From a virus: DNA of 64,000 bases. Of the stretch, positions 2,212 through 35,760 are shown piece after piece. The stretch lies in the IMG/VR virus record IMGVR_UViG_3300027782_000058, positions 1-64,000 of that record; one strand, written 5' to 3'. Made by a program: the position numbers and the translations under genes. Position 1 is the first letter of the stretch, and each line of letters begins with the position of its first letter. A model generated the notes under the pieces. That model made no database searches and had not been told where the DNA came from. It saw only the letters and a list, made by a program, of their open reading frames with translations.

Positions 2212-2353
2212 AAACCGTAAGTTACTGGCGAGTAGGAAAAAATCTTTACGACGCCATCGAGAAGTTGGACCGGGTCGTGCGGGAAAAACTCCCCACGGCC
2301 CGGTCGCTTCAGTTTTGTCGGGCAAAATTTTTATTGATTGGTACATTTGACCC

Positions 2354-3265
2354 ATGTCTGAACTGGTGTACGGCGGCGAGCCCGTCGAAGAGGGAGCAGG
2401 CGAGCCCGTCGTCGAGGAGCCAATCGACACTCGACCCGATCTGGCAGCCATCGGCCTGCCCGAGATCGAGCGAGGGGTGTGCGAGGACACCTACGAGAAC
2501 CGTGCTGCCCTTCGTCGAGCGAAGTTGCAATGGCAGCCGGTCTATGATAGTTTTGGTAACCCGACCGGACTGATCGCGGCACGGTCCCCGGAGGCGATGA
2601 AGGAGCGACGGATCCAGTCGCTCGCCGAGAAGCGACCGCTGCTCGTCGACCCGAAAGACATGAACTCGGATTATGTCACCGGGCTCGACCTACTGGTCGA
2701 CGAGGCGGCATGCCGTATCGCGCCACCGTGGGTGGTCGGTGCGACCAAGGGGTGGCAAGCCGAGCAACTGGCAGGCGGACCGTCGAGTGAGCGGCGTGCG
2801 CCGAAGGTGCTCCCGACCCGATGCCGCGTGATCAAGTCAGACGGTATCCGCTGCATGCTGTGGGCATCGGGTCGTCATCAGGATGACGGCATGTGCCGAG
2901 TCCATCTACGGTCTGCCCGTAAACCGGGCGAGGACATCGAGCGGGCACGGAAGAAGATCATCCAAGCCGCACCGTACGCGGTGGATGTCCTCGAAGAGAT
3001 GATGGAAACCGCTGTATCTGAGCCGGTTCGGCTCAAGGCTGCAACGGAGATCCTCGACCGTGCCGGAGTTCGAGGCGGCATGGAGATTGACATGGGCGTC
3101 GAGGTGACGGATGCGCGGCCTGCCGCTCAGGTCGTTGCCGAACGGCTGGCCCGTCTTGCTGCAGGAGCCGTGACCGTCGAGGCTGCCCAGCACAAAACGG
3201 ACAATCAGGACGAAGTGATCGATGCCGAGGTCGTTGAGATCGAAGAAGGAGAACTCGATGCGTGA
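2354..3265 (+). CDS. Probable terminase small subunit
   Basis: RC...C...CRVH zinc motif, then APYAVDVL...VRLKAATEILDRAG and acidic tail (VIDAEVVE), typical of actinophage small terminases. Confidence 0.55.
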   Translation: MSELVYGGEPVEEGAGEPVVEEPIDTRPDLAAIGLPEIERGVCEDTYENRAALRRAKLQWQPVYDSFGNPTGLIAARSPEAMKERRIQSLAEKRPLLVDPKDMNSDYVTGLDLLVDEAACRIAPPWVVGATKGWQAEQLAGGPSSERRAPKVLPTRCRVIKSDGIRCMLWASGRHQDDGMCRVHLRSARKPGEDIERARKKIIQAAPYAVDVLEEMMETAVSEPVRLKAATEILDRAGVRGGMEIDMGVEVTDARPAAQVVAERLARLAAGAVTVEAAQHKTDNQDEVIDAEVVEIEEGELDA

Positions 3266-3428
3266 AGAAATCGAAGAGATCGCGAACTTGGCAGCCGTGC
3301 TCGTTGAGGAACTTCAGTCCGACATCGAGTTGTGCAAGACAAGAGAAGAGCATATTCGGATGACGGCACGGACGAACGCTGCGACCAATCTTGTGCGCCT
3401 TCTCGACCTAGCGGCCTCGCGGATTTGA
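3258..3428 (+). CDS. Hypothetical protein
   Basis: AAGGAG RBS, ATG 3258, helical 56 aa. Confidence 0.65.
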   Translation: MREEIEEIANLAAVLVEELQSDIELCKTREEHIRMTARTNAATNLVRLLDLAASRI

Positions 3429-3433
3429 CTGTA

Positions 3434-3484
3434 GGTTGTTTCTTTGATATGATGCATGCTATGCATCAGATCAAAGAAACAACC
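3434..3484. repeat. AT-rich near-perfect palindrome (24-bp arms, 3-nt loop) overlapping a TTGACT-N17-TATGAT promoter
   Basis: GGTTGTTTCTTTGATATGATGCAT-gct-ATGCATCAGATCAAAGAAACAACC, one mismatch. Confidence 0.9.
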
Positions 3485-3588
3485 GTACTTGGGACCTAAG
3501 CCCTTTTTCTAATCGGGGTTACACTCGAATTGACGGCAAGCGACAACGCAATGCCTACGCTGAGGCGCGGGGGGACCGGAGGCATGAG

Positions 3589-3762
3589 ATGCCTGATCTA
3601 TTTATTTCAGTTCTAGTCCTAATGACAGTCGTTCAATCCACGCTGTGCGTGGTGATGATTACGTCGATTGCCGTGAGTGAATATCGGTACTTTCATTTGG
3701 CAAGCACAATTCATCACAAGGAAAACGTGCATGCTGCAGAGGAAGCCAAAAAAAATTTTTAG
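3589..3762 (+). CDS. Small membrane protein (57 aa)
   Basis: GGAGG RBS at 3578; MPDLFISVLVLMTVVQSTLCVVMITSIAV hydrophobic N-terminus. Confidence 0.55.
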   Translation: MPDLFISVLVLMTVVQSTLCVVMITSIAVSEYRYFHLASTIHHKENVHAAEEAKKNF

Positions 3763-3847
3763 CGGCACGGGCTGTTCATATCGAGTGCATCACGCTATGG
3801 TGTAAGTGAGTGCCTTAGAGCACTTCAAATACACAACGGAGGAAACG

Positions 3848-4279
3848 ATGTACAAGACCAAGATCGGCATGGCCGTGGGCCTAGCCGCTGCAGCACTCGT
3901 GCTTACGGCCTGCGGGTCGGGAAGCGGCACGGCCTCGACCGTGACGGTAACAGCGACCGCTGCAGCACCCGCACCCGCTCCTGCACCCGCACCAGCGGAG
4001 ACGGTAGACAGCGGCTCGGTCAAGGATGCCGCGTACATCGCGCTTCTTCGCAGTAAGGGCAACTCGTACGTCGACTCTGCAACGGACGAGAAGTTGATCG
4101 AACTCGGACACTCGGCGTGCGACGTATTCGATAGCGGCACGACCGTGCGCGAGTACGCCGTGTACTTCGTGAAGGAGTACCCGAACAACGAGGAGATGCG
4201 AACATTCGCCGCGTACCTCGGCGGTGCGGCGGTGGCCGCGTACTGCCCGGAGTACCAGTACCAGATTGATGCCCTCTAG
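3848..4279 (+). CDS. Lipoprotein, DUF732-like
   Basis: Signal peptide with lipobox LTAC; Thr/Pro-Ala linker; DAAYIALL...GHSACD...AAVAAYCPEY. Confidence 0.8.
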   Translation: MYKTKIGMAVGLAAAALVLTACGSGSGTASTVTVTATAAAPAPAPAPAPAETVDSGSVKDAAYIALLRSKGNSYVDSATDEKLIELGHSACDVFDSGTTVREYAVYFVKEYPNNEEMRTFAAYLGGAAVAAYCPEYQYQIDAL

Positions 4280-4281
4280 TC

Positions 4282-4629
4282 ATGGACGATCCACGGATCC
4301 GGGTTGGATCGGACGCGCTGCTGGACTCTCATCTGCCCGGCATGCCGTTGTCCGACATCCAACCCCGAATCGTGGAACGGGCAGGCAAGGATGCCGAGAC
4401 CGTGATTGATGCGCTCGACCGACTTCGCCTCGGCGAGGGAAACTCCTTCGAGCGCGATGTCGAGCGGCTGCTCGCAGCGACACGGATGAGACTGCTCGAA
4501 GACATCCTCGACCGATTGAAAGACGAGATGTCAAAGGTTGCTGACAGCGAGCGGTACTCGCACCTCGAACCCGGAATCCGATGGTCTTTGGAGATCCTCA
4601 CGGACCGGGTGATCGGCGTGGGCAAGTGA
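4282..4629 (+). CDS. Hypothetical protein
   Basis: Tightly packed ORF in operon. Confidence 0.65.
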   Translation: MDDPRIRVGSDALLDSHLPGMPLSDIQPRIVERAGKDAETVIDALDRLRLGEGNSFERDVERLLAATRMRLLEDILDRLKDEMSKVADSERYSHLEPGIRWSLEILTDRVIGVGK

Positions 4630-4931
4630 AGGTTGCGGTCTACTGGATGCGAGCAGGCTCGGATAACTGCCGCCGCTTTACGCTCTCCGATGAGCACGAT
4701 CATTACGAGATCCTCAGTCGACTCGTCGAGGAGACCGCTGCCTGCAGCGGCCCGCTGTATGACAAGGTCTCACCGATGCCTGAAGTCGAGGGCGGCTCGG
4801 GACTGCAGGAACGGGACTTAGTCAGACTTGACGACACTCTCTACGAGTTGAAGTCTCGAACGGAGTTCGTCTCTGCCTTCGATCAAACCGCGTACTTGAA
4901 ACCGATGACGGTCGACGACGACTTGACCTGA
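4626..4931 (+). CDS. Hypothetical protein
   Basis: GTGA overlap with upstream gene. Confidence 0.6.
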   Translation: MKVAVYWMRAGSDNCRRFTLSDEHDHYEILSRLVEETAACSGPLYDKVSPMPEVEGGSGLQERDLVRLDDTLYELKSRTEFVSAFDQTAYLKPMTVDDDLT

Positions 4932-4958
4932 GTAAGATCTCTATGATACAAATGATCC

Positions 4959-5270
4959 ATGTTCACTATTCTGCTATTTGGCAAGGCGTGGGAGATCAAC
5001 GAGCGCCTGAAGGGCGAGGACGACAGCGCCGGGTCCGTCGTGTTCCTCGCCTTCTTAGCGCTGATCTTCGTTTGGCCAGTGCTACCGGCACGGCTGCTCT
5101 ACCACGCGGGCATGTCTCAAAAGGTAGCCCTCTTGGTGACGGTGATCCCCGGAGCCATCTTTGCTCTACTGTCAATCGGTCTCTATCTGGCTGTCGGTCT
5201 GGTGGTGGCACTTATCGCTGTCATCGGAGCGACCTGCTACATGACGTGGACTAGCGGCTCGGAGGATTGA
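4959..5270 (+). CDS. Membrane protein
   Basis: Three to four hydrophobic segments. Confidence 0.65.
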   Translation: MFTILLFGKAWEINERLKGEDDSAGSVVFLAFLALIFVWPVLPARLLYHAGMSQKVALLVTVIPGAIFALLSIGLYLAVGLVVALIAVIGATCYMTWTSGSED

Positions 5271-5331
5271 CACACGGATTTAGATCTGTACTATGAAACG
5301 AAATGACACCCACCGAAGTGAGGAAGCAGAC

Positions 5332-5629: not shown

Positions 5630-6369
5630 ACCCGAACGAAAAGGTTGTCGTCGGATATGTCGACAACGGAGTCACACGCGGCCCGTTCGCACATGACCTG
5701 TTCCTGATGGGCGCGTCCCGAGCGGATCGGTTCGCCGGGATCGTGAACGAGTGCGACAACCTGATCGCTCGTGGTCGGAACCGCATGGTAAAAAATTTTT
5801 TGGCAAGCGGCACGGCTGAGTGGCTGTTCATGCTTGACGCCGACCAGCGGTTTTACCTCGAAGCGTTCGACTTGCTCATCAGTGCGGCGGACGCCAAGGA
5901 GCGGCCTGTCATCTCCGGGCTGTACTTTGCTGCCAACGACACTGGCGAGTTGTACCCGTTGCCGATGCCGACGATTTACATGAGGAACGAAGAGCATTCC
6001 TTTCATGTGATCACGCATTACCCGGAGAACGCGGTAGTCCAGATCGACGGTGCGGGCGCGGGATTCATGCTCGTGCATCGATCCGTGTTCGAGAAGATCG
6101 CTGAGCAGGCTGGACCTGAATACCTCGACCGCTGCTGGTTCCGTGACTACCCGCTGCCCGATGGTGACGGATGGTTCGGCGAGGATCTGTACTTCTGCAA
6201 CATGGTCCATGATGCCGGGTTCAACATGTACTGCCACACTGGAGCCACGTCTCCGCACATCAAGTCGTACGCGGTGACTGAAGCGCACTTCCTGAAGTTC
6301 CGCGACTTCTTCGATTCACAGGGGATCAAGTCCGAGTTCCAGAAGCGACTTGACAACGGCACGGATTAG
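5626..6369 (+). CDS. Glycosyltransferase (GT-A/GT2-like)
   Basis: IARGRN, WLFMLDAD (DxD), GAGAGFMLVHRSVF, GEDLYFC. Confidence 0.85.
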   Translation: MNPNEKVVVGYVDNGVTRGPFAHDLFLMGASRADRFAGIVNECDNLIARGRNRMVKNFLASGTAEWLFMLDADQRFYLEAFDLLISAADAKERPVISGLYFAANDTGELYPLPMPTIYMRNEEHSFHVITHYPENAVVQIDGAGAGFMLVHRSVFEKIAEQAGPEYLDRCWFRDYPLPDGDGWFGEDLYFCNMVHDAGFNMYCHTGATSPHIKSYAVTEAHFLKFRDFFDSQGIKSEFQKRLDNGTD

Positions 6370-7157: not shown

Positions 7158-7354
7158 CACTCGTGGCACCGTGTGACAAGTGCGGCAAGGACATGACCGA
7201 GTACGGAAGTTACGAGATTCGACGAAAGCACCCGGACCCTCGACGAGACCTAATAAAAAATTTTTGTTCCGAGTCCTGCATGTACGACGCGCTCGACTCG
7301 CGTGGCACGCGACTCACCGGGCCAATGCTCGAACGCTTGACACGAGCATCATAG
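7154..7354 (+). CDS. Zinc-finger miniprotein
   Basis: CDKCG...FCSESC; GTGA overlap. Confidence 0.65.
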   Translation: MTLVAPCDKCGKDMTEYGSYEIRRKHPDPRRDLIKNFCSESCMYDALDSRGTRLTGPMLERLTRAS

Positions 7355-9499: not shown

Positions 9500-9505
9500 C
9501 ACTCC

Positions 9506-9561: not shown

Positions 9562-9732
9562 GGGCGAGCGCGCCGGAGTGGAAAAAATCTTTGCGACGCC
9601 GTGATGAAGTGGGTCAAGGTAACGATTCGATAACGACAGCCGTTTCGATTAGACAGGTGTCATACCGGCATGGTACTGTTCTACATGTCAGCAAGACGCT
9701 GGCGAGACAAACGACACAGGGATGTGATCAGG

Positions 9733-9961: not shown

Positions 9962-10025
9962 ATAGACCACTCCTCCCTAGGAGAAGGCAGGCCCCGGATC
10001 CCCCTCCGGGGCTTTGTCTTTTCCC
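9962..10025 (+). ncRNA. Candidate small RNA (promoter-terminator unit with no ORF) carrying CCUCCCUAGG
   Basis: TTGACA 9933 with -10 near 9957; CTCCT-ccct-AGGAG hairpin, then GCCCCGGA-tcccc-CTCCGGGGC hairpin with T-rich tail. Confidence 0.55.
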
Positions 10026-10129
10026 GAAGCAGAACGCGCGGAAAAAATCTTTACGGATGCGCGCCGCCTTGACAAGAAATAATGCAAGGTATAGTCTGGG
10101 CACTACAACAACCGAGAGAGGAGAAGCAC

Positions 10130-10756: not shown

Positions 10757-10915
10757 GCGCGGACTCGGAAAAAATCTTTGCGCTCGCGCGCTAGCAACGT
10801 CTCGCGTTACTACTTTCCTGCCCCCGAAAACTCTCCTGCCGTTTGGACTTGCATCATAGAGAGATTCCTGCTATTCTCTCTAATGTCAGAACAACACCTA
10901 GGGAGGTAACAACCA

Positions 10916-12246: not shown

Positions 12247-12442
12247 GAATCACGCGGCCCCGATTCCACAAGGAGTCGGGGTCGCGTGCTCGCGCGCGCC
12301 TCGCGGCGTGCGGGAAAAAATCTTTACGACGCGGCGCGGGTACAACATAACGATTCGGTAACGACGGGCCTCTCAACTTGCGCTTCATCATAGAAGCGAG
12401 TAGAGTGTCCTTATCAGCACAAACAACTAGGAGGTGAAAGAT

Positions 12443-13216: not shown

Positions 13217-13402
13217 CCCGAGGAGGGCGGGGTCGGGAGAAATCCCGGCCCCGTCCTTCCGCGTTTTGAGCGCGGGCCGCAGGAAAAAATCTTTGGGGTC
13301 GCTAGGCGGAAAACTTTCTGAGGCGTAGGACTTGCGCTTGTCACAGAAGTTTGGTACTGTTTGACTACTCGCAGGGAGCGAGCACAAACTAGGGATGAAC
13401 AC

Positions 13403-13833: not shown

Positions 13834-14126
13834 GAGGTTAGCCAAGCAGAAGCGGGTCAGAAAACTTCCGGCCCGCTTTTGCATGTCCGGGTAGTTCCGG
13901 AAAAAATCTTTGCAATCCTGTCTCGATCTGCGGAAGGTCACGAAACGATAACGATCCCCCGGAAACTTGCTTTTGGACTTGACCAGTGTCAGTGCAGTAC
14001 GCAATAATGGTGCCAACGACGAAAGACAACCACCACTAGGGAACGCCGAGTTGACACAAACTCAGCCAACTGCTACTGTTACACCAACAAAGCAACACAC
14101 ACCCAAATGACGAAAGGACTAGGGAA

Positions 14127-14579
14127 ATGCTAGACAAGGACAAGCCAGTTCAGGGCTATGTTGTCTACTCGGAATTCCGACAGGGCGGCAGCACCCTTCA
14201 GATGTTTTTCACTCCGGATGGGTTCACCACTGATGGCCGCTTCGTGGGGATGAAGATCCACCGCCGAGTGGTCAGTTCGATCACACCCAAGAAGCAGTGG
14301 AAGATCTCATCTGCTCCTGATCGAGAGGTGCGGAAGTTCGTTGTCGATGGTGAGCCCAACACCTTCGACGCTGACTTCGCAGACACTCGTCTGGGATTCT
14401 GCCACTCGCTGCTCAACTCCATGATGGGTGGTTCATGGGAGATGGTGAAGCACCCCATCGTGGTTGAGGCATCCAAGAAGGACATGGATGACCTTCTCGC
14501 ACTCAAGACACCCACCAAGATCATCTACCGAATCAACCAGACTCGTGAGGCCGCTGGCTTCCCCGAGAACCTGTTCTGA
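14127..14579 (+). CDS. Hypothetical protein
   Basis: Promoter 14051; CTAGGGAA leader. Confidence 0.75.
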   Translation: MLDKDKPVQGYVVYSEFRQGGSTLQMFFTPDGFTTDGRFVGMKIHRRVVSSITPKKQWKISSAPDREVRKFVVDGEPNTFDADFADTRLGFCHSLLNSMMGGSWEMVKHPIVVEASKKDMDDLLALKTPTKIIYRINQTREAAGFPENLF

Positions 14580-14597: not shown

Positions 14598-15656
14598 ATG
14601 ACACACACTACACTTGTCGAGAAGTACCGCCCTCTGGGCAACCTTGACCCCTCTGGGGTATCGCTCTACGAGCGCCTCATGGAGGTGTCTCTGCTCGCTG
14701 GCGATGAGAACGCTGCCATGCGGCTCAATGCTCAGGTGCTGCCTCAGGGACGCTATGCAGAGCGCGTGGCTGCTCGTCCTCGCGTGGCTGCTGCCACTGC
14801 TGCTGCTCTCGCGGGTGGCCCTGTCATCGCTAGTGGTGATGACGTGTTCGTCCGGCCCAATGGTGAGCAGTACCACGCTCGCTCATGGGGTGAGCATCAG
14901 GACGTGATGGTCCTCCGCAAGGCGCGTGAGCAGACCAAGAAGGCTTACCTCTCAGGTGGGTCTCCTATGTTCACGCTGATCTACGGGGAGCCCGGCTGCG
15001 GCAAGACTGCGCTCGTGGAGGCAGCGTTCGGGAGCGATCTCTACACGCTCATGGGCACTGGCGACACTGAGGTCTCCGACCTCACGGGAGGCTATGTCCA
15101 GACCCCGAGTGGCACGTTCGTCTGGATCAATGGCGACATGATTCGCGCCGCCATCGAGGGCAAGGTCTACTTCATTGACGAGATCGGACTGGTTGACTCC
15201 AAGGTTCTGTCGATCCTCTACGGACTCATGGATGGACGCCGCGAGATCACTGTCAATGCCAACCTTGAGATGGGTTCGATCAAGGCCCACCCTGACTTCT
15301 ACGTCGTGGCTGCCACCAACCCCAACGCCCCCGGCGTTCGGCTCTCTGAGGCTCTCCTGTCGCGCTTCACCAATCAGGTGGAGATGACGACTGACTGGTC
15401 GCTCGCTCGCAAGTTGGGCGTCCCGACGACTGTCGTCACGGCAGCGCAGAACCTCAACAAGAAGCGCGACTCGCAGGAGTGCATGTGGGCTCCGCAGATG
15501 CGAGAGTTGCTCGCCTTCCGCGACATTGCGGAGACGTTCGGACTCAAGTTCGCGATCTCTAACCTGCTCGCTGCTGCACCTGAGATCGACCGGCCCATCG
15601 TGGCTGACGTTCTCACGCGGGTGTTCGGCGATGAGTGCAAGCCCGCCAAGATCTGA
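14598..15656 (+). CDS. MoxR/CbbQ-like AAA+ ATPase
   Basis: Walker A GEPGCGKT, Walker B YFIDEI, sensor ATNP, ALLSRF arginine finger. Confidence 0.92.
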   Translation: MTHTTLVEKYRPLGNLDPSGVSLYERLMEVSLLAGDENAAMRLNAQVLPQGRYAERVAARPRVAAATAAALAGGPVIASGDDVFVRPNGEQYHARSWGEHQDVMVLRKAREQTKKAYLSGGSPMFTLIYGEPGCGKTALVEAAFGSDLYTLMGTGDTEVSDLTGGYVQTPSGTFVWINGDMIRAAIEGKVYFIDEIGLVDSKVLSILYGLMDGRREITVNANLEMGSIKAHPDFYVVAATNPNAPGVRLSEALLSRFTNQVEMTTDWSLARKLGVPTTVVTAAQNLNKKRDSQECMWAPQMRELLAFRDIAETFGLKFAISNLLAAAPEIDRPIVADVLTRVFGDECKPAKI

Positions 15657-15798
15657 TCCCTAGCGGATCTTGGCGCTGGGTCGGGGAGTCGTTTGGGTGC
15701 GGCTCCCCGGCCCACCTAGGGAAGAATTGACAGCATCATAGACACCTGCTACTATCGTACTAATGCCGCAGGGAGCGGCCAACGACAGGAGAGACATA

Positions 15799-17646
15799 AT
15801 GGCACACATCAACCACACCGCCCACCGCAAGGGAGGGCACACGCCCCCCGAGTGGCTTCGGATCGGCGCTGAGATCTCCACCCTCGCCAACGCTTGGGCA
15901 GCGAGGTACGACCTCGTGGCCTACGTCGGCCCCGGTGCTGGAGGTCCGGCCCCCGCCTGCTACTCGCCCGCGCTGGCCGAGATCGAGGTCAACGTCACCA
16001 CGGCGTTCGGACCCCACATCAAGCCTGAGGACATTGGCACACTCACTGATCGTTCGACTCAGTACGAGTACGCTCGTGCCTGCGGAGCGATTCGCCACGA
16101 GGCGTACCACGCTCGCTACTCTGGCTGGGACATGGAGACTGCCAGCAAGGATCTCAAGCGCGACGAGTTCGACGCTCTGGTGCTGCTGGAGGAGGGTCGT
16201 ATCGAGGCGTTCGGAGTCAAGGATGACCCCACCTCGCGAGTGTTCCTCCGCGCTTGCGCGATGGACATTGTGATCGGGGACGCCAAGGAGCACCTTAACG
16301 AGGATGCCTCTCTGCGCGGTCTGACCAACCTTGTCGGTCTGGTCTACCCCCGAATCTTCGCTGGCATCCTTGACGCCGACGAGATGGCTGACCTGACTGA
16401 CCTGATCGAGGAGGCTCTGGGCTTCGACCTCGTGGAGTCTCTCTGCGCTCTGATCCGCAAGGCACAGGCTCACGACATGCACACCCACATCGAGCCTCTC
16501 TACCCTGTCGCCCGCGAGTGGGCGCGTCTGGTGCGCGAGGCCACGAGCGAGAGCGAGGAGCCGGGAGAGCCGGGAGAAGGTGGCGAGTCTGGCGACGAGG
16601 GCGAGGGTGAGGGTGATGGCCCCGGTAAGGCTCCCAAGTTCTCTGACGAGGAGATCAAGGAGATCATCGCTGAGGCTCTGGCTCGCATGGAGGATGCGGC
16701 TGAGGAGGTCGCGATCAACAACAACGATGACCTCGCAGATCAGGAGCAGGCAGAGGCGTGGGAGGGTGTCGTCAATGAGCGTCGTGCTGAGGCTGACGAG
16801 CGCAAGACTCACACCAACGTGGCAAGCAAGGTATTCGCTCGCCCCCGCGAGGGTGGCAGGAGCAGCGGCTCTCGTCTGCACAGGACTCGTGCGCCGCTTC
16901 CGTCTGAGCGCGCCGCTGCGGTTCAGGTGGCACGCGCTCTGGACCGCGCCAAGTACCGCGAGCGGGACGTTACTGAGACTCGCAGTGTGCTTCCTCCCGG
17001 TCGTCTCCGCACGCGGGCGATGGTGCAGGATGCCGCCAATCGAGCGCAGGGTCGCATGACTCAGGTAGACATGTGGCAGCGCAAGGCTCGCAAGCACACT
17101 GACGAGCCGACGCTGACTGTCGGGATCATGGTGGACATTAGCGGCTCGATGGGCTCTGCGATGGAGCCGATGGCGACTACCGCGTGGGTCATGTCTGAGG
17201 CGGGCTACCGGGTGCAGGCCAAGACCGCGATGGTCTACTACGGCAGCGCAGTGTTCCCGACGCTCAAGCCGGGAGAGCGCCAGAGCGAGGTTCGGATCTA
17301 CACCGCGCCTGACGGCACTGAGAAGTTTGACGAGGCGTTCTGCGCTCTTGACGGCTCTCTCAACCTGCTCTACGGAGCGGGCGCTCGCTTGCTTGTGGTG
17401 GTCTCTGACGGCTGCTACACGGCTCCGCAGATCGCTGCTGCCAAGAAGTGGGTCAAGCGATGCGAGGAGGCCGGTGTCGGCGTTCTGTGGCTTCCCTTCG
17501 ACCACGGCCACTACGCCCGTGAGATCCTCTCTGTGTCCTCTACGGCAAGCCTCGTGGCAGGAACGATGGACCCGGCTGCGGCTGCGGCTGAGATCGGGCG
17601 GGCTGCGGCTGAGTCGATGACCAAGATCGGTCGTCGGGCCGGGTGA
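15799..17646 (+). CDS. VWA-domain partner protein (CobT-like) with N-terminal HEXXH
   Basis: HEAYH, LEEGRIE, acidic Gly linker, MIDAS DISGSMG and VSDG; follows the MoxR ATPase. Confidence 0.9.
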   Translation: MAHINHTAHRKGGHTPPEWLRIGAEISTLANAWAARYDLVAYVGPGAGGPAPACYSPALAEIEVNVTTAFGPHIKPEDIGTLTDRSTQYEYARACGAIRHEAYHARYSGWDMETASKDLKRDEFDALVLLEEGRIEAFGVKDDPTSRVFLRACAMDIVIGDAKEHLNEDASLRGLTNLVGLVYPRIFAGILDADEMADLTDLIEEALGFDLVESLCALIRKAQAHDMHTHIEPLYPVAREWARLVREATSESEEPGEPGEGGESGDEGEGEGDGPGKAPKFSDEEIKEIIAEALARMEDAAEEVAINNNDDLADQEQAEAWEGVVNERRAEADERKTHTNVASKVFARPREGGRSSGSRLHRTRAPLPSERAAAVQVARALDRAKYRERDVTETRSVLPPGRLRTRAMVQDAANRAQGRMTQVDMWQRKARKHTDEPTLTVGIMVDISGSMGSAMEPMATTAWVMSEAGYRVQAKTAMVYYGSAVFPTLKPGERQSEVRIYTAPDGTEKFDEAFCALDGSLNLLYGAGARLLVVVSDGCYTAPQIAAAKKWVKRCEEAGVGVLWLPFDHGHYAREILSVSSTASLVAGTMDPAAAAAEIGRAAAESMTKIGRRAG

Positions 17647-18010: not shown

Positions 18011-18913
18011 TTGAGACTAATCGAAGTACACACAGACGACTACCGAAACTGGGTATTCGACACGTCGCACCCTACACAGGGGCGACGGTTCATCAAGGCG
18101 CACGAGCGGCTGCACGACCTCGCGGCAGGGCAAGGTGTTGATGTCAAGACCATCGAGTCTGACTATGTGCCAGACTTCCGGGTGATGCGGCTCGCGCATA
18201 GCGAGAGGTACATCGCTGAGGTGCTTGACGGGTACAGTGGCGAGTGGTCCGGACAGGACGAGGATCTCGGCATGCTCGCCCTCAGAATGTGCGGAGGGAC
18301 TCAACTGGCTCTTGACGCACTGCTGAGCGAGCGAGGTGTCTATCGGACTGCGGTCCACTTCCCCGGCGCGAAGCATCACGCGCAGTTCTCGCACTCAAGC
18401 GGGTTCTGTGTATTCGCTGACTTTGCCATTGCCGCGATCCGTGCGACGCAACTCGGCCTGCGAGTGGCGATCCTCGATATCGACGCGCATCACGGTGACG
18501 GCACGGAGAACCTGACGTATTCGAATCAGAGCATCCTGACGTACTCGATCCATGACGGGACGATCTTTCCCGGCACGGGTCACTACTCGGTGCCAAGCCA
18601 GCGGGTCTACAACGCTGCACTGGAAGCCGAGGCAGGGGATGCTCAACTTCACGAGAACGTCGAAGAGTTCATCCGGCTTGCCGGTGAGTTTAACGCTGAC
18701 TTGCTCATGATCGCGATGGGTGCCGATGGCCTGCGTAACGATCCTCTCTCTACGCTGACCTACAGTATTGGCGGGCTGACCCGCGCGGTCGCACTCGTTC
18801 GGTCGGAGTTCCCAGAACATCCGATCCTGCTCGGAGGAGCGGGCGGGTATCAGCCGGATACCGAGACGCCGGAAGTCTGGGCACAGATGGCAATCGCCGC
18901 GACCACCGGGTGA
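18011..18913 (+). CDS. Histone-deacetylase-family (AcuC/HDAC class I/II-like) Zn hydrolase
   Basis: GAKHHA, SGFCVFAD, ILDIDAHHGDGTE, SIH..FPGTG, GADGL..DPL, GAGGY. Confidence 0.93.
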   Translation: MRLIEVHTDDYRNWVFDTSHPTQGRRFIKAHERLHDLAAGQGVDVKTIESDYVPDFRVMRLAHSERYIAEVLDGYSGEWSGQDEDLGMLALRMCGGTQLALDALLSERGVYRTAVHFPGAKHHAQFSHSSGFCVFADFAIAAIRATQLGLRVAILDIDAHHGDGTENLTYSNQSILTYSIHDGTIFPGTGHYSVPSQRVYNAALEAEAGDAQLHENVEEFIRLAGEFNADLLMIAMGADGLRNDPLSTLTYSIGGLTRAVALVRSEFPEHPILLGGAGGYQPDTETPEVWAQMAIAATTG

Positions 18914-19050
18914 GCGAGAAAAAAAGTTTGGTGTCGCACTTCATCGCACTGTGGAAAACTCGATCCGATCTCGACTTGACAACGACTCTCTAATCAGGTA
19001 AGTTTAGTCCTGTCAGCAAGACCGCTGGCACAGACACTAGGGAGATCAAA

Positions 19051-19359: not shown

Positions 19360-19642
19360 CGTTTCTGAAAAAATCAGAAAAGCCCCGTCCAAAAAATCTT
19401 TGGAGCCCCGACTTCGACAGCACACAAAACAAAAGACCCCCGCCCGTAGGCGAGGGTCTTTTCCCCGCTGCCACGGTCACCGCCCCCCCTGTGGGGCGAT
19501 GAAAACCTACTGGAGTGGGAGTGCCCGCTCTGCGGCTACGGGGACACGTTCGATCCCCACGCCTAACAGAACTTGACAGCAGCCCTGAACTATGATTAGA
19601 TATACATATCGGCAGGGAGCCGAAGCCACTAGGGAGGCAGAC

Positions 19643-20071: not shown

Positions 20072-20287
20072 GGGCAGGGCCAATGGACGTGAAGACGAAG
20101 GCGCTAGAGGCGCAGGAAAAAATCTTTGGACTCCGGGTCAGTCGGCTCGCTTACGATCAAGAGTTGACAAGACTCAGGAAGTATGCTTAAATAGCACTAT
20201 CAACAAAGCACAACCCCGCACCGTGACCCCTTCGGGGGAGACCGCCACACAAGCAGGGTGCATGAGGTTCTAGGACAGAGATGCACC

Positions 20288-20368
20288 GCTCCCATAGCGC
20301 GCTGGTTGCGCGACATGTGCAAGACGAGCAAGAGCATGGTAGGTGGGTTCGATTCCCGCATGGGTGGC
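20288..20368 (+). ncRNA. tRNA-like element at the 3' end of an ORF-less transcript (about 20195-20408)
   Basis: D-arm GCGC-GCTGGTT-GCGC; T-arm GTGGG-TTCGATT-CCCGC; acceptor-like CCCAT/ATGGG; aberrant anticodon arm; no CCA; promoter 20164; terminator 20370-20408. Confidence 0.6.
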
Positions 20369-20539
20369 TGGAAAAACTGGGCAGTGATCCTGTCCAGTTT
20401 TTCCTTTTGGGGGAGGAAGGAAAAAATCTTTACTCAGCACTCCTTCGCCGCCGGGAATCTTGACAACTGTCAGAGACCTATGCTTTAATGTACATGTCGG
20501 CAGGGAGCCGACAACCAAACGCCTAGGGAGGCGACAGAA

Positions 20540-21122: not shown

Positions 21123-21357
21123 TCCCCAAACAAACAGCCCCGCTTAGGCGGGGTTTTTGTTGTTCCGAGGTGATGTAGGGCAGCAGAAAAAATCTTTACT
21201 CTGACTCCGGGGATCCATTTCGTCACGCGGACATTCCCCCACATCAAGGCAGTGAGAACATTTCCCCGCATCAGTAGGGATTGACAACTAAAGAACTTGC
21301 CTGCTAAGATTCACTTATTCGGCAAACAGCCGGGTTGACGCACATACGGAGGACATA

Positions 21358-22387: not shown

Positions 22388-22691
22388 CAAGAGGCGTAAG
22401 CCGTGAGTGCGCTTGTGCGGGAAAGATGGATATGCTTATGACCCGCTAACCACGGCAGCAGGAGGTGTTGGCGAACTCCCTGCGCTGATCCTGTCGAGAA
22501 GCCCCCGGACTCATACTCCGGGGGTCTTTCGTTTTCTTCCTCTGCTCGCCGGGTGACGGGGTAAAGATTTTTTCCTCTCGCGTGGAAACTGACCCGCGAT
22601 GGCTTCGCAATAGAACTTGACAACTGCTTCTCAAAGGAGTAACGTATGTCTTGTCGCTCCAACCGGGGGCGCGCGCCCAAGGGAGGCACCC

Positions 22692-22964: not shown

Positions 22965-23046
22965 TCCGCAAGCGAAGGGACTCCCCTCCGGGGGAGTCCC
23001 TTTCGTATGCCCGGAGCAGTTAGGAAAATTCTTTGATACACTCGCG

Positions 23047-23140
23047 GTGTCTGCTTGAGCAACTCCCTATGCTCGTGGACACAGGTGGGACCCCCGCCGC
23101 GACTAGCGCCGTCACTCCCTAGACGGCGCTAGTTGCTTTA
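23047..23140. ncRNA. Candidate structured RNA with two identical ACUCCCUA hairpin loops
   Basis: GAGCA-actcccta-TGCTC (23057-23074) and ACTAGCGCCGTC-actcccta-GACGGCGCTAGT (23102-23133); TACACT -10 at 23037; no ORF. Confidence 0.65.
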
Positions 23141-23429: not shown

Positions 23430-24002
23430 ATGACTACCATCGCCGCGATTCAGGGAAAGAACTTCGCTGTTGTCGGATTCGATTCGATGGTCACGGAAGA
23501 CAACGGCAGGTTTTTCACACTCCCATCGGACATGCCAAAGGTTGTCAAAGACGAGAACTGCCTGTTTGGAGCATCCGGAGACCTGAGGTTGATCAACCTG
23601 CTTTCGATCTCCAACTTCGACAAGCCGATGGAAAGTTTTAAAGGCCGAGCACTCGATGTCTGGGTAGGCGGAATCTTCATCCCAGAACTCAGAGAAGTCT
23701 TGGAAGAAGGGCTTCCGTCTGAGAAAGAAGGCTCCTACGAGGGAACCATCATCGCGGTCTTTAATGGAGTCATCTACGAGGTAGGCCCTAACTACGAGTG
23801 GATCCGTTCGACGAACGGACTTTACGCACTCGGCTCCGGCGGAAGTTACGCGCTCGGGAACCTTCAGGCTGCGGAGCCGGGGATCTACAAAAATTCTTTA
23901 CTCGCTGAGCAGGCCGTCCGCCGAGCGGTAAAGGCAGCGATCAAGTACGACTATCGATCTCGCGGGCCGGTTCGGGCTCTTACCGTTCATGCCCCGGCTT
24001 GA
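23430..24002 (+). CDS. Proteasome-beta/HslV-like Ntn threonine protease
   Basis: N-terminal MTTIAA (Thr1 nucleophile), GFDS, KV, GASGD, ALGSGGSYALG, A..YD..SRGP. Confidence 0.85.
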   Translation: MTTIAAIQGKNFAVVGFDSMVTEDNGRFFTLPSDMPKVVKDENCLFGASGDLRLINLLSISNFDKPMESFKGRALDVWVGGIFIPELREVLEEGLPSEKEGSYEGTIIAVFNGVIYEVGPNYEWIRSTNGLYALGSGGSYALGNLQAAEPGIYKNSLLAEQAVRRAVKAAIKYDYRSRGPVRALTVHAPA

Positions 24003-24073: not shown

Positions 24074-24751
24074 GTGATCAAAAATACGGAAAACGCCCTC
24101 GATGACATCATCGAGCGTCGATCAAAGGGAGAGACCCTGCAGTCAATCGCCAACGACTACGGCGTGACGCGGGAGCGAATCCGGCAAATCGCTGGATCGG
24201 ATGCTAGTGCATCGGCTCGGACCCTACGCAAGGAACGACGTGAGCAGAGTCTCGAACGACTCCGGGTTGATCGGGAAGAGGCTCGGATCAAGGCATTGCT
24301 TGCCCCCTACGAGGAGAAGTCAAAGCGTTGGTCAGACGAGGACATTCTTGCTTGCCTGCGTGAGGCTGCCGCTACTGTCGGTGCGGACACAATCTCCATC
24401 AAGAAGTACAACGGACTTGTGCCGCTGATGGATATCCCATCAAGTGCAACGGTTACCCTCAGGTTCAACTCATGGAACGATGCGCTTGAGGCTGCCGGGC
24501 TTAAGGCTGCCAACTCATCGCGGGTTCAGCCTTTCTACAAGCGGGAAGATGCCGTCGCATCTGTCAAGGCGTACCTCGCCGAAAAGTGGGAGTCCGGCTC
24601 GTTGAGCATGGGATCGCAGAAGTACGACGAGTGGCGACTCTCTCAGAAGCCAACTACTCACCCGATTCCGTCTGCTGCCCTCATCGTTCGCCGATGGGGA
24701 TGGGCAAACGTTCGTGCCGAGGCTGCGAGTCAGATGCTCGCCGAGCGCTGA
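24074..24751 (+). CDS. HTH DNA-binding protein with homing-endonuclease-associated repeats
   Basis: TLQSIANDYGVTRERIRQI (sigma region 4-like HTH); PSSATVTLRFNSWNDALEAAGL repeat. Confidence 0.75.
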   Translation: MIKNTENALDDIIERRSKGETLQSIANDYGVTRERIRQIAGSDASASARTLRKERREQSLERLRVDREEARIKALLAPYEEKSKRWSDEDILACLREAAATVGADTISIKKYNGLVPLMDIPSSATVTLRFNSWNDALEAAGLKAANSSRVQPFYKREDAVASVKAYLAEKWESGSLSMGSQKYDEWRLSQKPTTHPIPSAALIVRRWGWANVRAEAASQMLAER

Positions 24752-26033: not shown

Positions 26034-26204
26034 ATGTCAAAGATTTTTTCCACGTTCCGGCGCGTAGTCTGGTCGTCGGTCCTCGCGGTTCTGCTTTTTC
26101 TCGGTAGTCTCTACGCGGTCCATCTTGGAGACAATCTGCTTACGTTGGCACTTGCCATCGGTGGAAACACGTTTGCACTGCTAGCACTTCGAGCATCCCG
26201 CTGA
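26034..26204 (+). CDS. Small two-TM membrane protein
   Basis: Two hydrophobic helices. Confidence 0.6.
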   Translation: MSKIFSTFRRVVWSSVLAVLLFLGSLYAVHLGDNLLTLALAIGGNTFALLALRASR

Positions 26205-27088: not shown

Positions 27089-27174
27089 GCGTCGACCTTA
27101 CTCGTGAATCGTATTCGAAGTCGAGCGAGCGGGCGGAGAACGAGAAAAAATCTTTACTCCGCCCGCCGGGCGGC

Positions 27175-28957: not shown

Positions 28958-29179
28958 CCGCGCGCCTAGCGAGAAGCCTCATCCCTACGGGGGATGGGGC
29001 TTTTCGCATTCCCGTCGCGAGTCGAGGACGCCGCCGGAAAAAATCTTTGCCTCGCCCCCGCGCGGCCCCGCCCCCGGACGAATGGAAAGGCTTCACTCGA
29101 AAGAACTTGACACCTGTCATAGGACTGGTATAAGGTGTGTATACATCCCAGAGAGGGGTGCCACTAGGGAGGTGGGAAG

Positions 29180-29940: not shown

Positions 29941-30207
29941 CCCTCACGAAGTACGGCCCCCACCTACGGGTGGGGGCTTTTCGTTTTCGCGCGACGGGAG
30001 GACTGGTAACCCTCTCGCCGAAAGGCCCTCGCCGAAAGGCGGGGGCCTTTTCGCGTGCGAATGCGGGCCGGGTGATGGGAGGTGGCGAAACTTTTTTTCC
30101 GGTCATCGCGCGCGAGGTCGCTACGCGCGGGACAACTTGACACTCGGTAGGATGTTCGATAAGGTAGGACTACCGCCCAACCGGGGCGCACAACCTAGGG
30201 AGTCGAA

Positions 30208-30590: not shown

Positions 30591-30761
30591 GTGCCGTTTC
30601 GCACGTCGTGCGAGCAATGCGAGGGAGTCGCCACCGTGCTAGTGGCGGGCGGTCGCGCGCACGCGCAATGCCTGCCGCTGCCGGTGGACTTGACGCGGCT
30701 CGCTGCCATGCCGCGACTTCCGGATGGGATCCCGTGGCGGTGCCCGTGGTGCGGCGCTTGA
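30591..30761 (+). CDS. Zinc-finger miniprotein
   Basis: GGAGG RBS; CEQC...CPWC. Confidence 0.5.
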   Translation: MPFRTSCEQCEGVATVLVAGGRAHAQCLPLPVDLTRLAAMPRLPDGIPWRCPWCGA

Positions 30762-30969
30762 AACTTTTTTTCCTCACCTACGCGCACACGGCAGGACATC
30801 GGGAGTGCTCGGGCTACCGCGACTTCGAGACTTTGCGCGAAAGTCTGCCGTAAGGCTCTCAGACTTGACATGACTTGACGCATAGGGCTCTCATGACTTG
30901 ACAAACGTTCGGATTCGAGTAAACTGGGCACACCGGCCCACAAGGGGCCGCAACCGAAGGGACACCGAC

Positions 30970-31500: not shown

Positions 31501-31741
31501 GGCCCCGAGCGCGAGAGGCCCCATCCCTTCGGGGGTGGGGCCTTCGTCATGTCGTGCGGATCACGCGCGAGCGGCGAGCGGCAGGCGAGAAAAAATCTTT
31601 GCCCTGCCCCCGTCGGGCGTGGAGTCGCGAGAGGTCGCGCGAGTGGTGAGATTCCCTTCCGAGATTCGACTTGACATGCCGCACGAGGTACGTCATACTG
31701 GAGGCATGCCGCAAGGCGCGGCAGCACCTAGGGAGGCAATC

Positions 31742-31987: not shown

Positions 31988-32217
31988 CACCCGAAAGATG
32001 CCCCGCCCCGAAAGGGTGCGGGGCATCTTTGCGTTTGGGATTGACAATCCGGCGCGCGAGGGGCACCGCCGCACCGTGGAAAAAATCTTTGCCCACGGGG
32101 CGGTCGGGAGTCGCGCGCGGACTGCGAACCATGCCGATGCACTTGACTTGACACTGCCTTAGATCCGAGTAAACTGGGACTACCGCCCCGGCAGGGGGCC
32201 ACACCTAGGGAGACCAA

Positions 32218-32556: not shown

Positions 32557-32772
32557 CCCGAACGTTCTGAAAGGCCCCGCATCCGAAAGAGCGCGGGGCC
32601 TTTCGCATTGCGCGGGGAGCGCGCGCGGTGGAATCGGAAAAAATCTTTAGACCGCCGCCCCGCCCGTCGCCACGCGCCCATCGCCCGGTCCCGATAGAAC
32701 TTGACAACGCTCGCAGAATCCGGCATACTAGATCCATGCCGCAGGGAGCGGCACTAATCAAGGGAGACTGAA

Positions 32773-32910
32773 ATGACCTTCGCAATCGCCTACACCGTGA
32801 ACACCGAGAACATCGTCCTGTCGGGCCTTGACTCGCAGGGGCTTATCGATGCCGTGCTCTACTCGGCTCAATACGGCCCCATCACGAACGTCACGGTGTC
32901 GTCCTACTGA
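32773..32910 (+). CDS. Miniprotein (45 aa), similar to 30208-30456
   Basis: Promoter 32701; CAAGGGAG RBS; FAIAYT..VLSGLD..NVTV. Confidence 0.7.
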   Translation: MTFAIAYTVNTENIVLSGLDSQGLIDAVLYSAQYGPITNVTVSSY

Positions 32911-33039
32911 CAGGCACCGCGCGAGACCCCGGCCCTTACGGGTCGGGGTCTTTCGCTTTCTAGGGGGCTTGACAACGTGACTCAAACTAGTAGACTGGGG
33001 CTACGCCCCGATACGCGGGGCCTGACCTAGGGAGTCACA

Positions 33040-33177
33040 ATGGCCGTTATGACCACAGAGTGGATCTGTTCCTCATGCCGTACCGTGTGGGTGAGTGAGG
33101 ACTACCCGCTTTGCCCGGAGTGCCGCACGGATGAGTGCGCGCTCACGCGCGAGGCGTGGGTTAGGTGGGTACGATGA
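33040..33177 (+). CDS. Zinc-ribbon miniprotein (45 aa)
   Basis: CTAGGGAG RBS; CSSC...CPEC. Confidence 0.7.
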   Translation: MAVMTTEWICSSCRTVWVSEDYPLCPECRTDECALTREAWVRWVR

Positions 33178-33485
33178 CCACCACCCGCAACGCAAACGCC
33201 GCTATCGCGTCGTGCGAGACGTTCCGCGCGTCGGCCCTGTCGGGAGTCACCACGGTGCCCGGTGCGGGTCGCCTTGACGGTGCCGACCGTGATCGGTTCT
33301 ACGCCGACCGGGACGCTATCGCCTACGCGGTTATGTCCTACGGCACGCCTATCGCGTGGCTCACGCCGCGCGGGTGGCACGTCGTGGGCCAGCGTTTCAG
33401 CGTCACCACTTCACGACACCAGAGCGTCACCTTGCGGGGCGTGCGCGAGTGGTGCGAACGGTCGGGAGTCACTTGCGTTTGGTGA
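33174..33485 (+). CDS. Conserved hypothetical phage protein
   Basis: YAVMSYGTPIAW...SVTTSRHQ; ATGA overlap. Confidence 0.8.
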   Translation: MTTTRNANAAIASCETFRASALSGVTTVPGAGRLDGADRDRFYADRDAIAYAVMSYGTPIAWLTPRGWHVVGQRFSVTTSRHQSVTLRGVREWCERSGVTCVW

Positions 33486-33799
33486 CCCGCTAGCCTCCGA
33501 GTGAGAGCCCTGCCCCGTTTGAGGGGGGTGGGGCTCTCGCCGTTTCGCGCGCGGCGTGCGGGCGCTCGACGAAAAAAATCTTTACCCCCCCGGTGTTTGG
33601 CTCGACGGACTACCGAGAGGTGGTCGGGGTCTTCACTTGTCTCCCGGCGGGGTGCGGGGCGGGGCGCGCCCACCCGTGACGCTCTCGGGGCGCTATCAAA
33701 CCGTGACCTAGAAACTTGCGGGAAGTGTTGACAGTCTCCCCAAACTCTGACAAACTAGAGGCATGCCCCAAACGGGGGCACCACCTAGGGAGGCACCAA

Positions 33800-33907
33800 A
33801 TGTCACTCACCACCACCACCGCCTACACGGTCACTAGCCTCTGGGATGACGACCTAGAGGACGCACTCTGTGAGTGCGTTGCCGATGACTGCCCCCTAGA
33901 TCACTAG
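33800..33907 (+). CDS. 35-aa peptide
   Basis: Promoter 33728; CTAGGGAG RBS; CEC...CPLDH. Confidence 0.6.
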   Translation: MSLTTTTAYTVTSLWDDDLEDALCECVADDCPLDH

Positions 33908-34026
33908 GGGGCAAGCGGGCAGGGGCACCCTACGGGGTGCCCCTTTCGTTGCCCGGCGGGGGTGCGCGGCGGGCGTCCGGAAACTTTTTTTCGTGCCTCG
34001 CGCCCCAGCGGCACGGCACGGCCTAC

Positions 34027-34067
34027 GGCAGGGCAGGGCAGGGGCAGGGCAGGGCAGGGCAGGGGGG
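34027..34067 (+). repeat. (GGGCA)n tract, G-quadruplex-capable
   Basis: GGCAGGGCAGGGCAGGGGCAGGGCAGGGCAGGGCAGGGGGG; related (GCGGCAGG)4 at 34493-34530. Confidence 0.85.
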
Positions 34068-34185
34068 TGACGATGACCGTTATAGAACCGTGACCAAAAC
34101 TTGCGAGACTGGCTTGACACTTGGCAGGCAACTACGGTACTTTCGTTGTATGCCGCAAAGGGCGGCACCAACTAGGGAGGCACCA

Positions 34186-34446
34186 ATGTCCAACTACACC
34201 TTCACCACCAACACCCCGTTCGTCAACGTCTCTGTCGGTCCGCGTACCGATGTTGCTCAGTACATCTTCCACCTCGCCAACGGGGACAGTATCAGCGTTC
34301 TCCCCGCCTACGACCCTGCCGACTTCGAGTCGGCGTACATCCCCGCCGGGGACACGTCCGGACGTTGGGATGTTCGTAGGTGGGACGGCACCGACGCCTC
34401 CCCTGAGAGCGTGGCCCTCGCGCACCTCGCGGCACTCACCGCCTGA
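34186..34446 (+). CDS. Hypothetical protein
   Basis: Promoter 34114; CTAGGGAG RBS. Confidence 0.75.
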   Translation: MSNYTFTTNTPFVNVSVGPRTDVAQYIFHLANGDSISVLPAYDPADFESAYIPAGDTSGRWDVRRWDGTDASPESVALAHLAALTA

Positions 34447-34633
34447 CCCTCGCTCACTGGAAGGCCCTCGCTACGGCGGGGGCCTTCCTCATGCGGCAGG
34501 GCGGCAGGGCGGCAGGGCGGCAGGGCGGGGCCTCCCGAAAAAGTTTGCCGGTAGGTCTTGCCATCCGATTCGAAGTACGGTACTTTTACCTCAGCGCCCC
34601 AAAAGGGGCCACAACCTAACCTAGGGAGACACA

Positions 34634-34861
34634 ATGACCACCACCGCCACCCGCCCCACCCCCACTACCAAGACCGTTTCCGTTGCCGTTCACCCTAGCG
34701 GCGAGTGTTTCGTCGTCACCCGGATCGATGGGTTTTACGACGCGGGTAACGGCTTCCGCGACCGTTCATTCTGGGAGGTTGTGTTCACCCTCAAGCGGGC
34801 AGGCGGGGACGTGCTGCACAAGGTGCCGAACCGCCACTACCGCCCGTGTGAGTGCGGGTAG
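34634..34861 (+). CDS. Hypothetical protein
   Basis: CTAGGGAG RBS; terminator 34879-34905. Confidence 0.72.
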   Translation: MTTTATRPTPTTKTVSVAVHPSGECFVVTRIDGFYDAGNGFRDRSFWEVVFTLKRAGGDVLHKVPNRHYRPCECG

Positions 34862-34916
34862 TCCGCACCACGGCGAGAGGCCCCGCCCGGAAGGGTGGGG
34901 CCTCTCGCATGTCGGG

Positions 34917-34979
34917 CTCACGGCTCACGGCCTACGGCTCACGGCCTACGGCTCACGGCTCACGGCCTACGGCCTACGG
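34917..34979 (+). repeat. Nine tandem heptamers C(TC/CT)ACGG
   Basis: CTCACGG and CCTACGG units, 9 in total. Confidence 0.95.
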
Positions 34980-35219
34980 CCCCCCGTACTTACGGTCACC
35001 GCCCTCCCGGACGTGTGGCAGGCCCTGCAGCCTGCCGCCGGATGGCTCACTACCGCGTGGACTGTGGTCGACGGTGCGGGCCGTGAGTACCGTAGCGACT
35101 CCCCCGCCGACGCGGTGGCCTCTACAGGGCAGGAAGGTAGGCCCTAGGCCCACGACTCGGAAGGCCCCGACACCCGCGAGGGAGTCGGGGTCTTTCGTTG
35201 TGTCCATGCTCACGCGCAC

Positions 35220-35760
35220 TAACGCACGTTAACGCGCGTTAGCGCGCGTTAGGAATGAGCGACAGGACATGCCCCTATGCCCCTCAGAGAGGCTCTAGAG
35301 CATTAGAACACCCTCATCCTCATGTTCCCCCAGACTCACCCTGACAGGCCCTCAGAGAGGCTCTAGAGCCTCAGGGCAGGAAGGCAGGGCAGGAAGGTAG
35401 GGCAGGGGCTTCCTGTCGGGAGGTAGGGGCAGGGAGGCAGGGGCAGGCAGGCAGGGAGAGAGAGAGAGAGAGGGCAGGGACACTCGACAGGCTCACTCGA
35501 CAGGCTCGACACACTCGACTGACCCTCGACTCGACTCGACTCACTCGACAGGCAGGCACTCGACTCGACTCACTCGACAGGCAGGCACTCGACTCGACTC
35601 ACTCGACAGGCAGGCAGGCAGGCACTCGACTCGACACACTCGACACACTAGACATGGCCCTCGACAGGCAGGAAGGCAGGCAGGGGAAAGGTTTTTTCCC
35701 TGCCCTAGTATGTCCGTTTTGCTCTTGATGTCCGTTTTGATCCTTTCTGTCCGTTTTGTA
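35220..35760. repeat. Non-coding repeat-rich junction (origin/pac/terminus candidate)
   Basis: CCCTCAGAGAG(G)GCTCTAGAGC x2; purine-rich GGCAGG/GAGA tract; 29-bp TCACTCGACAGGCAGGCACTCGACTCGAC x2 plus a variant; TGTCCGTTTTG x3. Confidence 0.85.

Follow-up and report, generated by a model that had tools for sequence, protein, structure and literature searches.

In several well-described systems, many copies of a short element are dispersed between or ahead of genes. The P1 C1 operators and the RK2 KorB OB sites each offer one regulator many replicon-wide sites at varying promoter distances, UP elements occupy the region from -40 to -60 of bacterial promoters, and integron attC sites, which combine conserved ends with a variable centre, require IntI and accompany promoterless cassettes. 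Among phages, the L5 stoperators are the sites of the gp71 repressor of Cluster A mycobacteriophages (PMC9283540, PMC6550527), and the PeSLs of T4-type phages, which flank ORFans in hyperplastic regions, unite an A/T-rich stretch with a strong sigma70-like promoter and with a stem-loop terminator that often has poly-G followed by poly-C (PMC2839356, PMC4122927). Here we analyse a dispersed 11-base box, AAAAAATCTTT, in a 64-kb stretch of DNA (the window), which constitutes the first 64 kb of the 91,079-base IMG/VR virus record IMGVR_UViG_3300027782_000058. The source is an uncultured freshwater actinobacterial phage, and the record is about 54% complete. The phage shares 76% identity in the capsid protein with Actinomycetia phage DSL-LC01, assembled from a lake metagenome, and its more remote kin are large Microbacterium, Arthrobacter, Gordonia and Mycobacterium phages. 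Near-identical DNA is contained in freshwater metagenome runs, and a megablast search with 20 kb of the record returned no match among isolated phages. The box punctuates an early array at bases 1-36 kb, which comprises about 70 small genes, mostly without any family.

In layout, the PeSL is the closest published analogue. In both cases, small ORFans of a plastic region are separated by recurring composites in which a strong host-type (sigma70-like) early promoter joins a stem-loop terminator and A/T-rich DNA, and the arms are G-rich and then C-rich. Unlike in PeSLs, the A/T-rich DNA does not lie directly upstream of the -35 element: here it forms a separate 15-bp box, which stands at a variable 16-156 nt from that element. 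The promoter is also less uniform, the host is actinobacterial, and recombination at the box was not seen in contigs of four low-depth runs. With the stoperators, the box shares the presence of at least about 20 copies of a short, asymmetric intergenic site, the orientation of which follows transcription (17 of 19 copies here; 36 of 38 and 15 of 15 in two relatives) and the sequence of which varies between lineages. However, the box is unrelated in sequence to the GGTGGMTGTCAAG-like 13-mer, and it lies behind terminators of the early array only, whereas stoperators are found inside transcription units. Pfam scans of the array of this incomplete record recovered no helix-turn-helix (HTH) repressor, and there was no sign of a temperate phage. 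The P1 C1 and RK2 KorB sites are similarly numerous, dispersed and variable in their distance to promoters; KorB sites, however, are palindromic, and no ParB-like or C1-like protein was found here. The likeness to attC would lie in one recombination-prone element per gene cassette and in imperfect, variable inverted repeats. An attC-like role, suggested in an earlier note on this DNA, nevertheless finds little footing: the conserved part is the centre and not the stem ends, each unit has its own promoter, and neither PF00589 nor any other tyrosine or serine recombinase domain had a match in the 91-kb record, incomplete as it is. Dispersed, oriented operators and composite terminator-promoter cassettes are kinds of element already known. 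The novelty lies in a box that stands apart from the promoter as an element of its own, marks out the early array in a group of uncultured freshwater actinophages and is replaced lineage by lineage.

A conserved box at the boundaries of early units

The window contains 19 exact matches to AAAAAATCTTT (17 on the plus strand and 2 on the minus strand), and shuffled sequence yielded none (0 expected). All are confined to the first 34 kb of the 91-kb record; no exact box is present from 37 to 91 kb (chance for 19 sites, approximately 7e-9), and the 57 kb of late and structural genes have zero copies. The earlier note had listed these sites by the preceding G, together with several variants, and had seen none past 37 kb. 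Each of the listed copies and variants is present, and the absence continues to 91 kb, so the box is not spread evenly along the genome. A logo of the 19 copies extends the core to a full 15-base box, GG-A6-TC-T3-R-C, in which 11 positions are invariant in every copy, R at +12 is likewise found in all 19, and the remaining positions are less strict (G at -1 in 17, G at -2 in 15 and C at +13 in 14). Outside the box, G is abundant on the left and C on the right. Likeness among copies spans only 15-24 nt, the remainder of each spacer being unrelated; neighbouring copies have a few additional flanking bases in common, and the left and right flank subtypes co-vary. The A/T islands of the array measure just 11-13 bp, are set in flanks of 66% GC and nearly all belong to this class. 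Minor forms (A6T5, A7GT3, A6TAT3 and A6CCT3) occupy about 10 further places in the same region; those additional to the earlier list are the A6T5, A6TAT3 and A6CCT3 sites of Table 1 and another A6T5 at 5790. An exact-pattern scan of viral contigs gave single chance matches only.

According to our own gene calls, made with a codon-usage script, 18 of the 19 exact copies are intergenic and the 19th falls inside a doubtful 35-codon open reading frame (ORF); given a non-coding share of 31% in the first 37 kb, the corresponding probability is approximately 8e-9. The plus strand carries almost all genes of the record, and 17 of the 19 copies are co-oriented with transcription (strand bias 17:2, P = 0.0007). 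The box is a specific, selected cis-element at unit boundaries.

Between stop codon and start codon, one typically meets first a GC hairpin, in many cases trailed by T-rich sequence. The box follows after 12-55 nt and a TTGACA-N16-18-TAnnnT promoter after another 16-156 nt; a very constant 40-47 nt then separates this promoter from a CTAGGGAGG-type ribosome site and start codon. Every unit is equipped with a TTGACA-type promoter, and a terminator-like hairpin precedes about 15 of the 19 boxes, in agreement with the place between terminator and next promoter proposed earlier. Like an UP element, the box presents an A-tract and then a T-tract upstream of the -35 hexamer, but it is absent at many equal promoters, its distances to the -35 show no 10-11 bp periodicity (Rayleigh P 0.4-0.6), and the DNA adjoining the -35 is not A/T-rich. 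Because its spacing to the -35 is neither fixed nor phased, the box is not a classical UP element, as had been argued before. An independent consensus scan found strong promoters to be enriched, all on the plus strand (8 versus 3.3 and 7 versus 1.2 expected); terminators were not enriched under a strict rule, because many of the hairpins have poor T-runs. RNA contigs from four runs (depth 1-5) covered no exact box, and this cover is too thin to call the boxes untranscribed. We also note a direct repeat, AACGA-N5-TAACGA, at 9621-9636 and 12349-12364 (2 exact matches versus 0.04 expected), with a weaker copy near 13940; it follows three boxes at a distance of 23-31 nt and may provide some units with a second regulatory site.

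Perfect flanking stems of at least 5 bp accompany 7 of the 19 sites, compared to 9% of 7,282 control intergenic positions (P approximately 0.001), and the excess persists when each flank is shuffled separately (P approximately 0.01). The G-rich left and C-rich right composition explains part of this signal. At the other 12 sites the stem is 4 bp or shorter. Constrained DNA folding gave z below -1.64 in 6 of the 19 cases, with a mean z of just -0.47, and no stem at 13901, 19391 and 26039. Flanking complementarity is real but partial, extending to about one third of the sites, and the boxes of relatives are not enriched in it; for these two reasons, a hairpin is not a general feature of the box. 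The statement in the earlier note that the flanks are often complementary therefore holds for its four cited examples and for a minority of sites, whereas its extruded hairpin with a conserved loop is not supported as a general rule.

Positional counterparts in related phages

As relatives, we considered 62 loci encoding the AAA-ATPase of the array. None of them carries the box of this phage in number, and most have a highly repeated 11-14-mer of their own. The nearest relative, with an ATPase identical at 75% of amino acids, contains seven copies of AAAAAATATTT and four of A6T5, located behind hairpins and ahead of TTGACA promoters. Three further lineages use GTATTTATTTTTT, GTATTCATTTTTT or GTATCCACTTTTT as the spacer box, in each case 8-17 nt past the T-run of a canonical terminator and modally about 30 nt before a TTGACA -35 element. 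The GTATTTATTTTTT form is present in 38 copies within 24 kb of a 96-kb relative contig, all but two on one strand, and in 15 copies, all on one strand, in a complete 153.7-kb genome with terminal repeats, where all of them fall within a 14-kb stretch, 8-22 kb from one end. Since the coding strand bears a T-run in these three lineages versus an A-run in the phage studied here, we regard their boxes as positional counterparts and not as proven homologues.

Some lineages repeat the promoter itself, for example a uniform extended -10 region in DSL-LC01 and others, and in some the repeat forms part of the ribosome site. DSL-LC01, the nearest isolate-like record, has no such box and presents the uniform promoter motif in its place. 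Between 23.5 and 43.4 kb of that genome, there are 24 copies of the promoter block TTCTAAAG-A/T-TGTTATAAT, often within a short inverted repeat, and its small genes are preceded by a uniform leader, ACGACGAAAGGACAA. Microbacterium phage Pumpernickel, a cultured relative, packs its operons tightly and shows no repeated box in the vicinity of the ATPase. The sole array module kept in all 62 loci is the pair formed by the MoxR-like AAA-ATPase and its 615-aa partner (14598-17646), the latter annotated in DSL-LC01 as a cobalamin biosynthesis protein.

A candidate protein-binding site and the alternatives

The best reading of these observations, to which we assign a probability of roughly 0.45, is that the box would serve as a double-stranded DNA site read by a lineage-specific, probably phage-encoded, sequence-specific protein at terminator-promoter junctions. 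A protein-recognised site had been among the earlier suggestions, and it is favoured by uniformity within the genome, divergence between lineages, polarity, fixed positions outside the A/T core, the near-exclusive placement in intergenic DNA and the confinement to the early array. Constancy inside one genome, set against change from lineage to lineage, is what one sees when a cis site evolves together with its reader, and bending alone would not call for fixed positions other than A/T. As the box is specific to a phage lineage, the protein that we infer to bind it is probably encoded by the phage. In a variant strain, the substitutions listed around the 10769 copy cluster in its flanks, with none listed inside the box; given that the table is partial and leaves 58 differences unlisted, this is weakly consistent with constraint on the box.

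The box would occupy the only DNA of the array that is normally untranscribed, between the terminator hairpin that closes one unit and the host-type promoter that opens its successor, and a protein bound there in a fixed orientation could act on unit junctions. Its most likely role would be either a polar block or insulator against read-through, following the logic of the L5 stoperators (PMC9283540), or a common switch of the early-promoter array. The former fits because the box lies just behind hairpins and, in relatives, within reach of a terminator-paused polymerase. The switch would have to act at a distance or through contacts between neighbouring sites and not by occupying each promoter.

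Several points weigh against a bound regulator. No candidate binder was apparent among about 75 array proteins in Pfam and PHROGs scans of a record that is only partly complete. The distance of the box to both hairpin and promoter varies, which leaves no simple steric mechanism; two exact copies are inverted at otherwise normal positions; and about 13 hairpin-promoter gaps, which are shorter and in which the hairpin abuts the -35, have neither the box nor an A/T stretch. Gene conversion among copies could also account for the uniformity within the genome. The only DNA-binding candidates in those scans are three WhiB-like proteins (window 298-627; record 88241-88438 and 89275-89466) and a 225-aa protein (24074-24751) with an N-terminal HTH and a homing-endonuclease-associated repeat; none of 64 related loci has a homologue of the latter, which may be what is left of a mobile gene. 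For the conserved array proteins at 2354-3265 and 14127-14579, a PDB sequence search and the ESM Atlas revealed no DNA-binding candidate common to relatives.

In large uncultured freshwater actinophages, 25-35 kb of the genome is given over to dozens of very small early genes, each self-contained and of unknown function. That a single box marks where the units meet, and that each lineage has a different one, suggests that the whole gene set shares a device for control or exchange. Should a phage protein read the box, the two would make up a compact orthogonal regulatory pair for high-GC bacteria and a handle for spotting early regions in metagenomic phage contigs.

Among the alternatives, a PeSL-like boundary stands first, although we consider it unlikely as the whole explanation; it could hold together with the protein-site reading. 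Box, hairpin and promoter would here provide the short shared homology for swapping, deleting or circularising ORFan units, and repeated exchange would keep the copies uniform. The layout of promoter, stem-loop terminator and A/T stretch between ORFans, with a G-rich left and a C-rich right flank, agrees with such exchange, as do the high mosaicism of the array compared to the nearest relative and the few extra bases shared by neighbouring copies. However, the 11-15 bp in common are very short for homologous exchange. The earlier expectation that breakpoints of gene gain and loss would map to the box is not supported either: presence/absence edges relative to the nearest relative fall in 8 of 18 box-bearing gaps and in 17 of 31 others, with no enrichment, and in contigs of the variant strain (four runs, depth 1-5) the listed ends are not at boxes and no box-to-box joint was found. 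One 9.8-kb skip in these contigs has a side of 21 nt and is unreliable, and a metagenome scan with a cassette protein retrieved only relatives of at most 50% identity, too remote for exact breakpoints. Furthermore, because the left and right flank subtypes co-vary, whole elements appear to have been copied and not crossed over at the core. If the box does mark exchange points, the PeSL idea would extend from T4-type phages of Gram-negative hosts to actinobacterial phages.

Distinctly less probable is a structural or host-read A/T element, that is, an A-tract bend, an UP-like site for the alpha subunit of RNA polymerase or a host nucleoid-protein site that boosts the promoter. The A-tract-then-T-tract resembles a distal UP subsite, the minor variants A6T5 and A7GT3 retain the A-then-T shape, and the box of relatives lies modally about 30 nt ahead of the -35. 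Yet the distances in this phage are wide and unphased, about 13 comparable promoters do without box or A/T stretch, the G, C and R positions are fixed, and the dominant sequence changes between relatives. Lsr2 prefers flexible TpA-rich DNA to rigid A-tracts. Control by Lsr2, which the earlier note had entertained, gains no support from the phage itself, with no Lsr2 domain (PF11774) in the 91-kb record and with islands of such short length in GC-rich flanks.

We see little likelihood in a bolder form of exchange, in which a lineage-specific phage enzyme would recognise the boxes and cross over or nick there, as part of a cassette-exchange system that is dedicated to the task and needs no integrase. 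In that event, some copies would sit on stems, promoter-gene-terminator units would be swapped between co-infecting relatives, and the early array would be the phage counterpart of an integron.

There is a slight chance that an RNA polymerase or sigma factor encoded by the phage uses the box as its promoter, of a second class before each unit like the T4 middle promoters. Phage-specific promoters typically do take the form of uniform, oriented boxes that lie ahead of genes and differ by lineage; nevertheless, neither a T7-type RNA polymerase nor sigma region 2 had a match in the record or in the complete 153.7-kb relative, which makes this reading unlikely, and no -10-like element is found in the box or at a fixed distance after it. 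A divergent virion polymerase inside the 3121-aa protein encoded downstream is conceivable. That protein was tried as an N4-like virion polymerase and set aside, having only a DEDDh exonuclease domain and no PF00940 match.

Slighter still is the chance of a single-strand or hairpin-dependent site, at which nicking, priming or recombination would take place in the loop of an extruded stem, as in attC or a rolling-circle origin, or of a DNA-entry signal. Strand polarity is strong and flanking complementarity exceeds the controls (7 of 19 versus 9%), but the stems at 12 of the 19 sites are short, with none at three, relatives show no stem enrichment, the loops would measure 13-25 nt, and an integrase or resolvase domain was not found in the 91-kb record. 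The least probable reading is an RNA-level signal by which RNase E or a phage endoribonuclease would cleave read-through transcripts and separate units: the strand bias, the A/U-rich stretch between GC-rich segments and the reported RN/CNU preference of mycobacterial RNase E, which AU/CUU of the box would fit, are outweighed by hairpins with T-runs, because of which the box would rarely be transcribed (in relatives, strong canonical terminators lie just 8-17 nt upstream), by the lack of a C in the form of the relative, and by two inverted copies at normal positions.

Sites and neighbouring features

Table 1. Exact and variant copies of the box in the window
Feature	Position	Strand	Context
Exact box AAAAAATCTTT	2237..2247	+	intergenic, 106 nt before gene 2354; 5-bp flanking stem
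Exact box	9582..9592	+	behind hairpin and T-run; fold z -1.7
Exact box	10042..10052	+	terminator-like 9989-10014; TTGACA 16 nt downstream
Exact box	10769..10779	+	variant-strain contig with 15 differences in 364 nt around; those listed (partial table) all flank the box
Exact box	12315..12325	+	fold z -3.1
Exact box	13284..13294	+	exact match
Exact box	13901..13911	+	no flanking stem
Exact box	19391..19401	+	30 nt past strong hairpin and T-run; no stem in fold
Exact box	20117..20127	+	TTGACA promoter of ORF-less unit 36 nt downstream
Exact box	20421..20431	+	exact match
Exact box	21187..21197	+	terminator-like 21136-21155; promoter 21281-21310
Exact box, inverted	22563..22573	-	usual hairpin-promoter place; terminator-like 22501-22525; TTGACA 43 nt further
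Exact box, inverted	26039..26049	-	no stem in fold
Exact box	27145..27155	+	between two minus-strand ORFs; 10-bp flanking inverted repeat; fold z -3.2
Exact box	29038..29048	+	exact match
Exact box	31590..31600	+	promoter 31671-31699
Exact box	32080..32090	+	promoter 32148-32175; fold z -2.9
Exact box	32638..32648	+	promoter 32701-32729
Exact box	33573..33583	+	exact match
Variant A6-TA-T3	858..868	+	dominant form of nearest relative
Variant A6T5, near-palindromic	3750..3760	n/a	intergenic
Variant A6T5	7255..7265	n/a	intergenic
Variant A7-G-T3	18919..18929	+	pattern match
Variant A7-G-T3, inverted	30088..30098	-	pattern match
Variant A7-G-T3, inverted	30761..30771	-	intergenic
Variant A7-G-T3, inverted	33981..33991	-	intergenic
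Variant G-A5-G-T3	34537..34546	+	preceded by 8-bp tandem repeat
Variant A6-CC-T3	35687..35697	-	inside perfect flanking inverted repeat

Structural genes, from 37 kb on, encode a portal, the 3121-aa protein, a MuF-like fusion protein and the capsid protein. Within the head gene cluster, the 3121-aa protein (39991-49356) carries its DEDDh-type exonuclease domain in the centre, and the MuF-like fusion (51194-55690) is 1498 aa long. The early genes include those for a histone-deacetylase-family protein (18011-18913; E 8.5e-46) and an HslV-like peptidase (23430-24002). Between the early array and the virion genes lies a gene-free stretch with dense tandem repeats at 34493-34528, 34915-34981 and 35212-35760, the repeat units of which measure 8 bp, 7/14/21 bp, 29 bp (three copies) and 66 bp (two copies).

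One unit, at 20165-20410, contains no ORF; it consists of a consensus TTGACA promoter, a tRNA-like T-arm string (GGTTCGATTCCC) and a hairpin with a T-run, and neither it nor any other part of the window matched a known RNA in ARAGORN and Rfam searches. The intergenic segment at 23025-23139, which likewise holds no ORF, belongs to the very small set of non-coding segments whose DNA is conserved in the nearest relative (75% over 119 nt).

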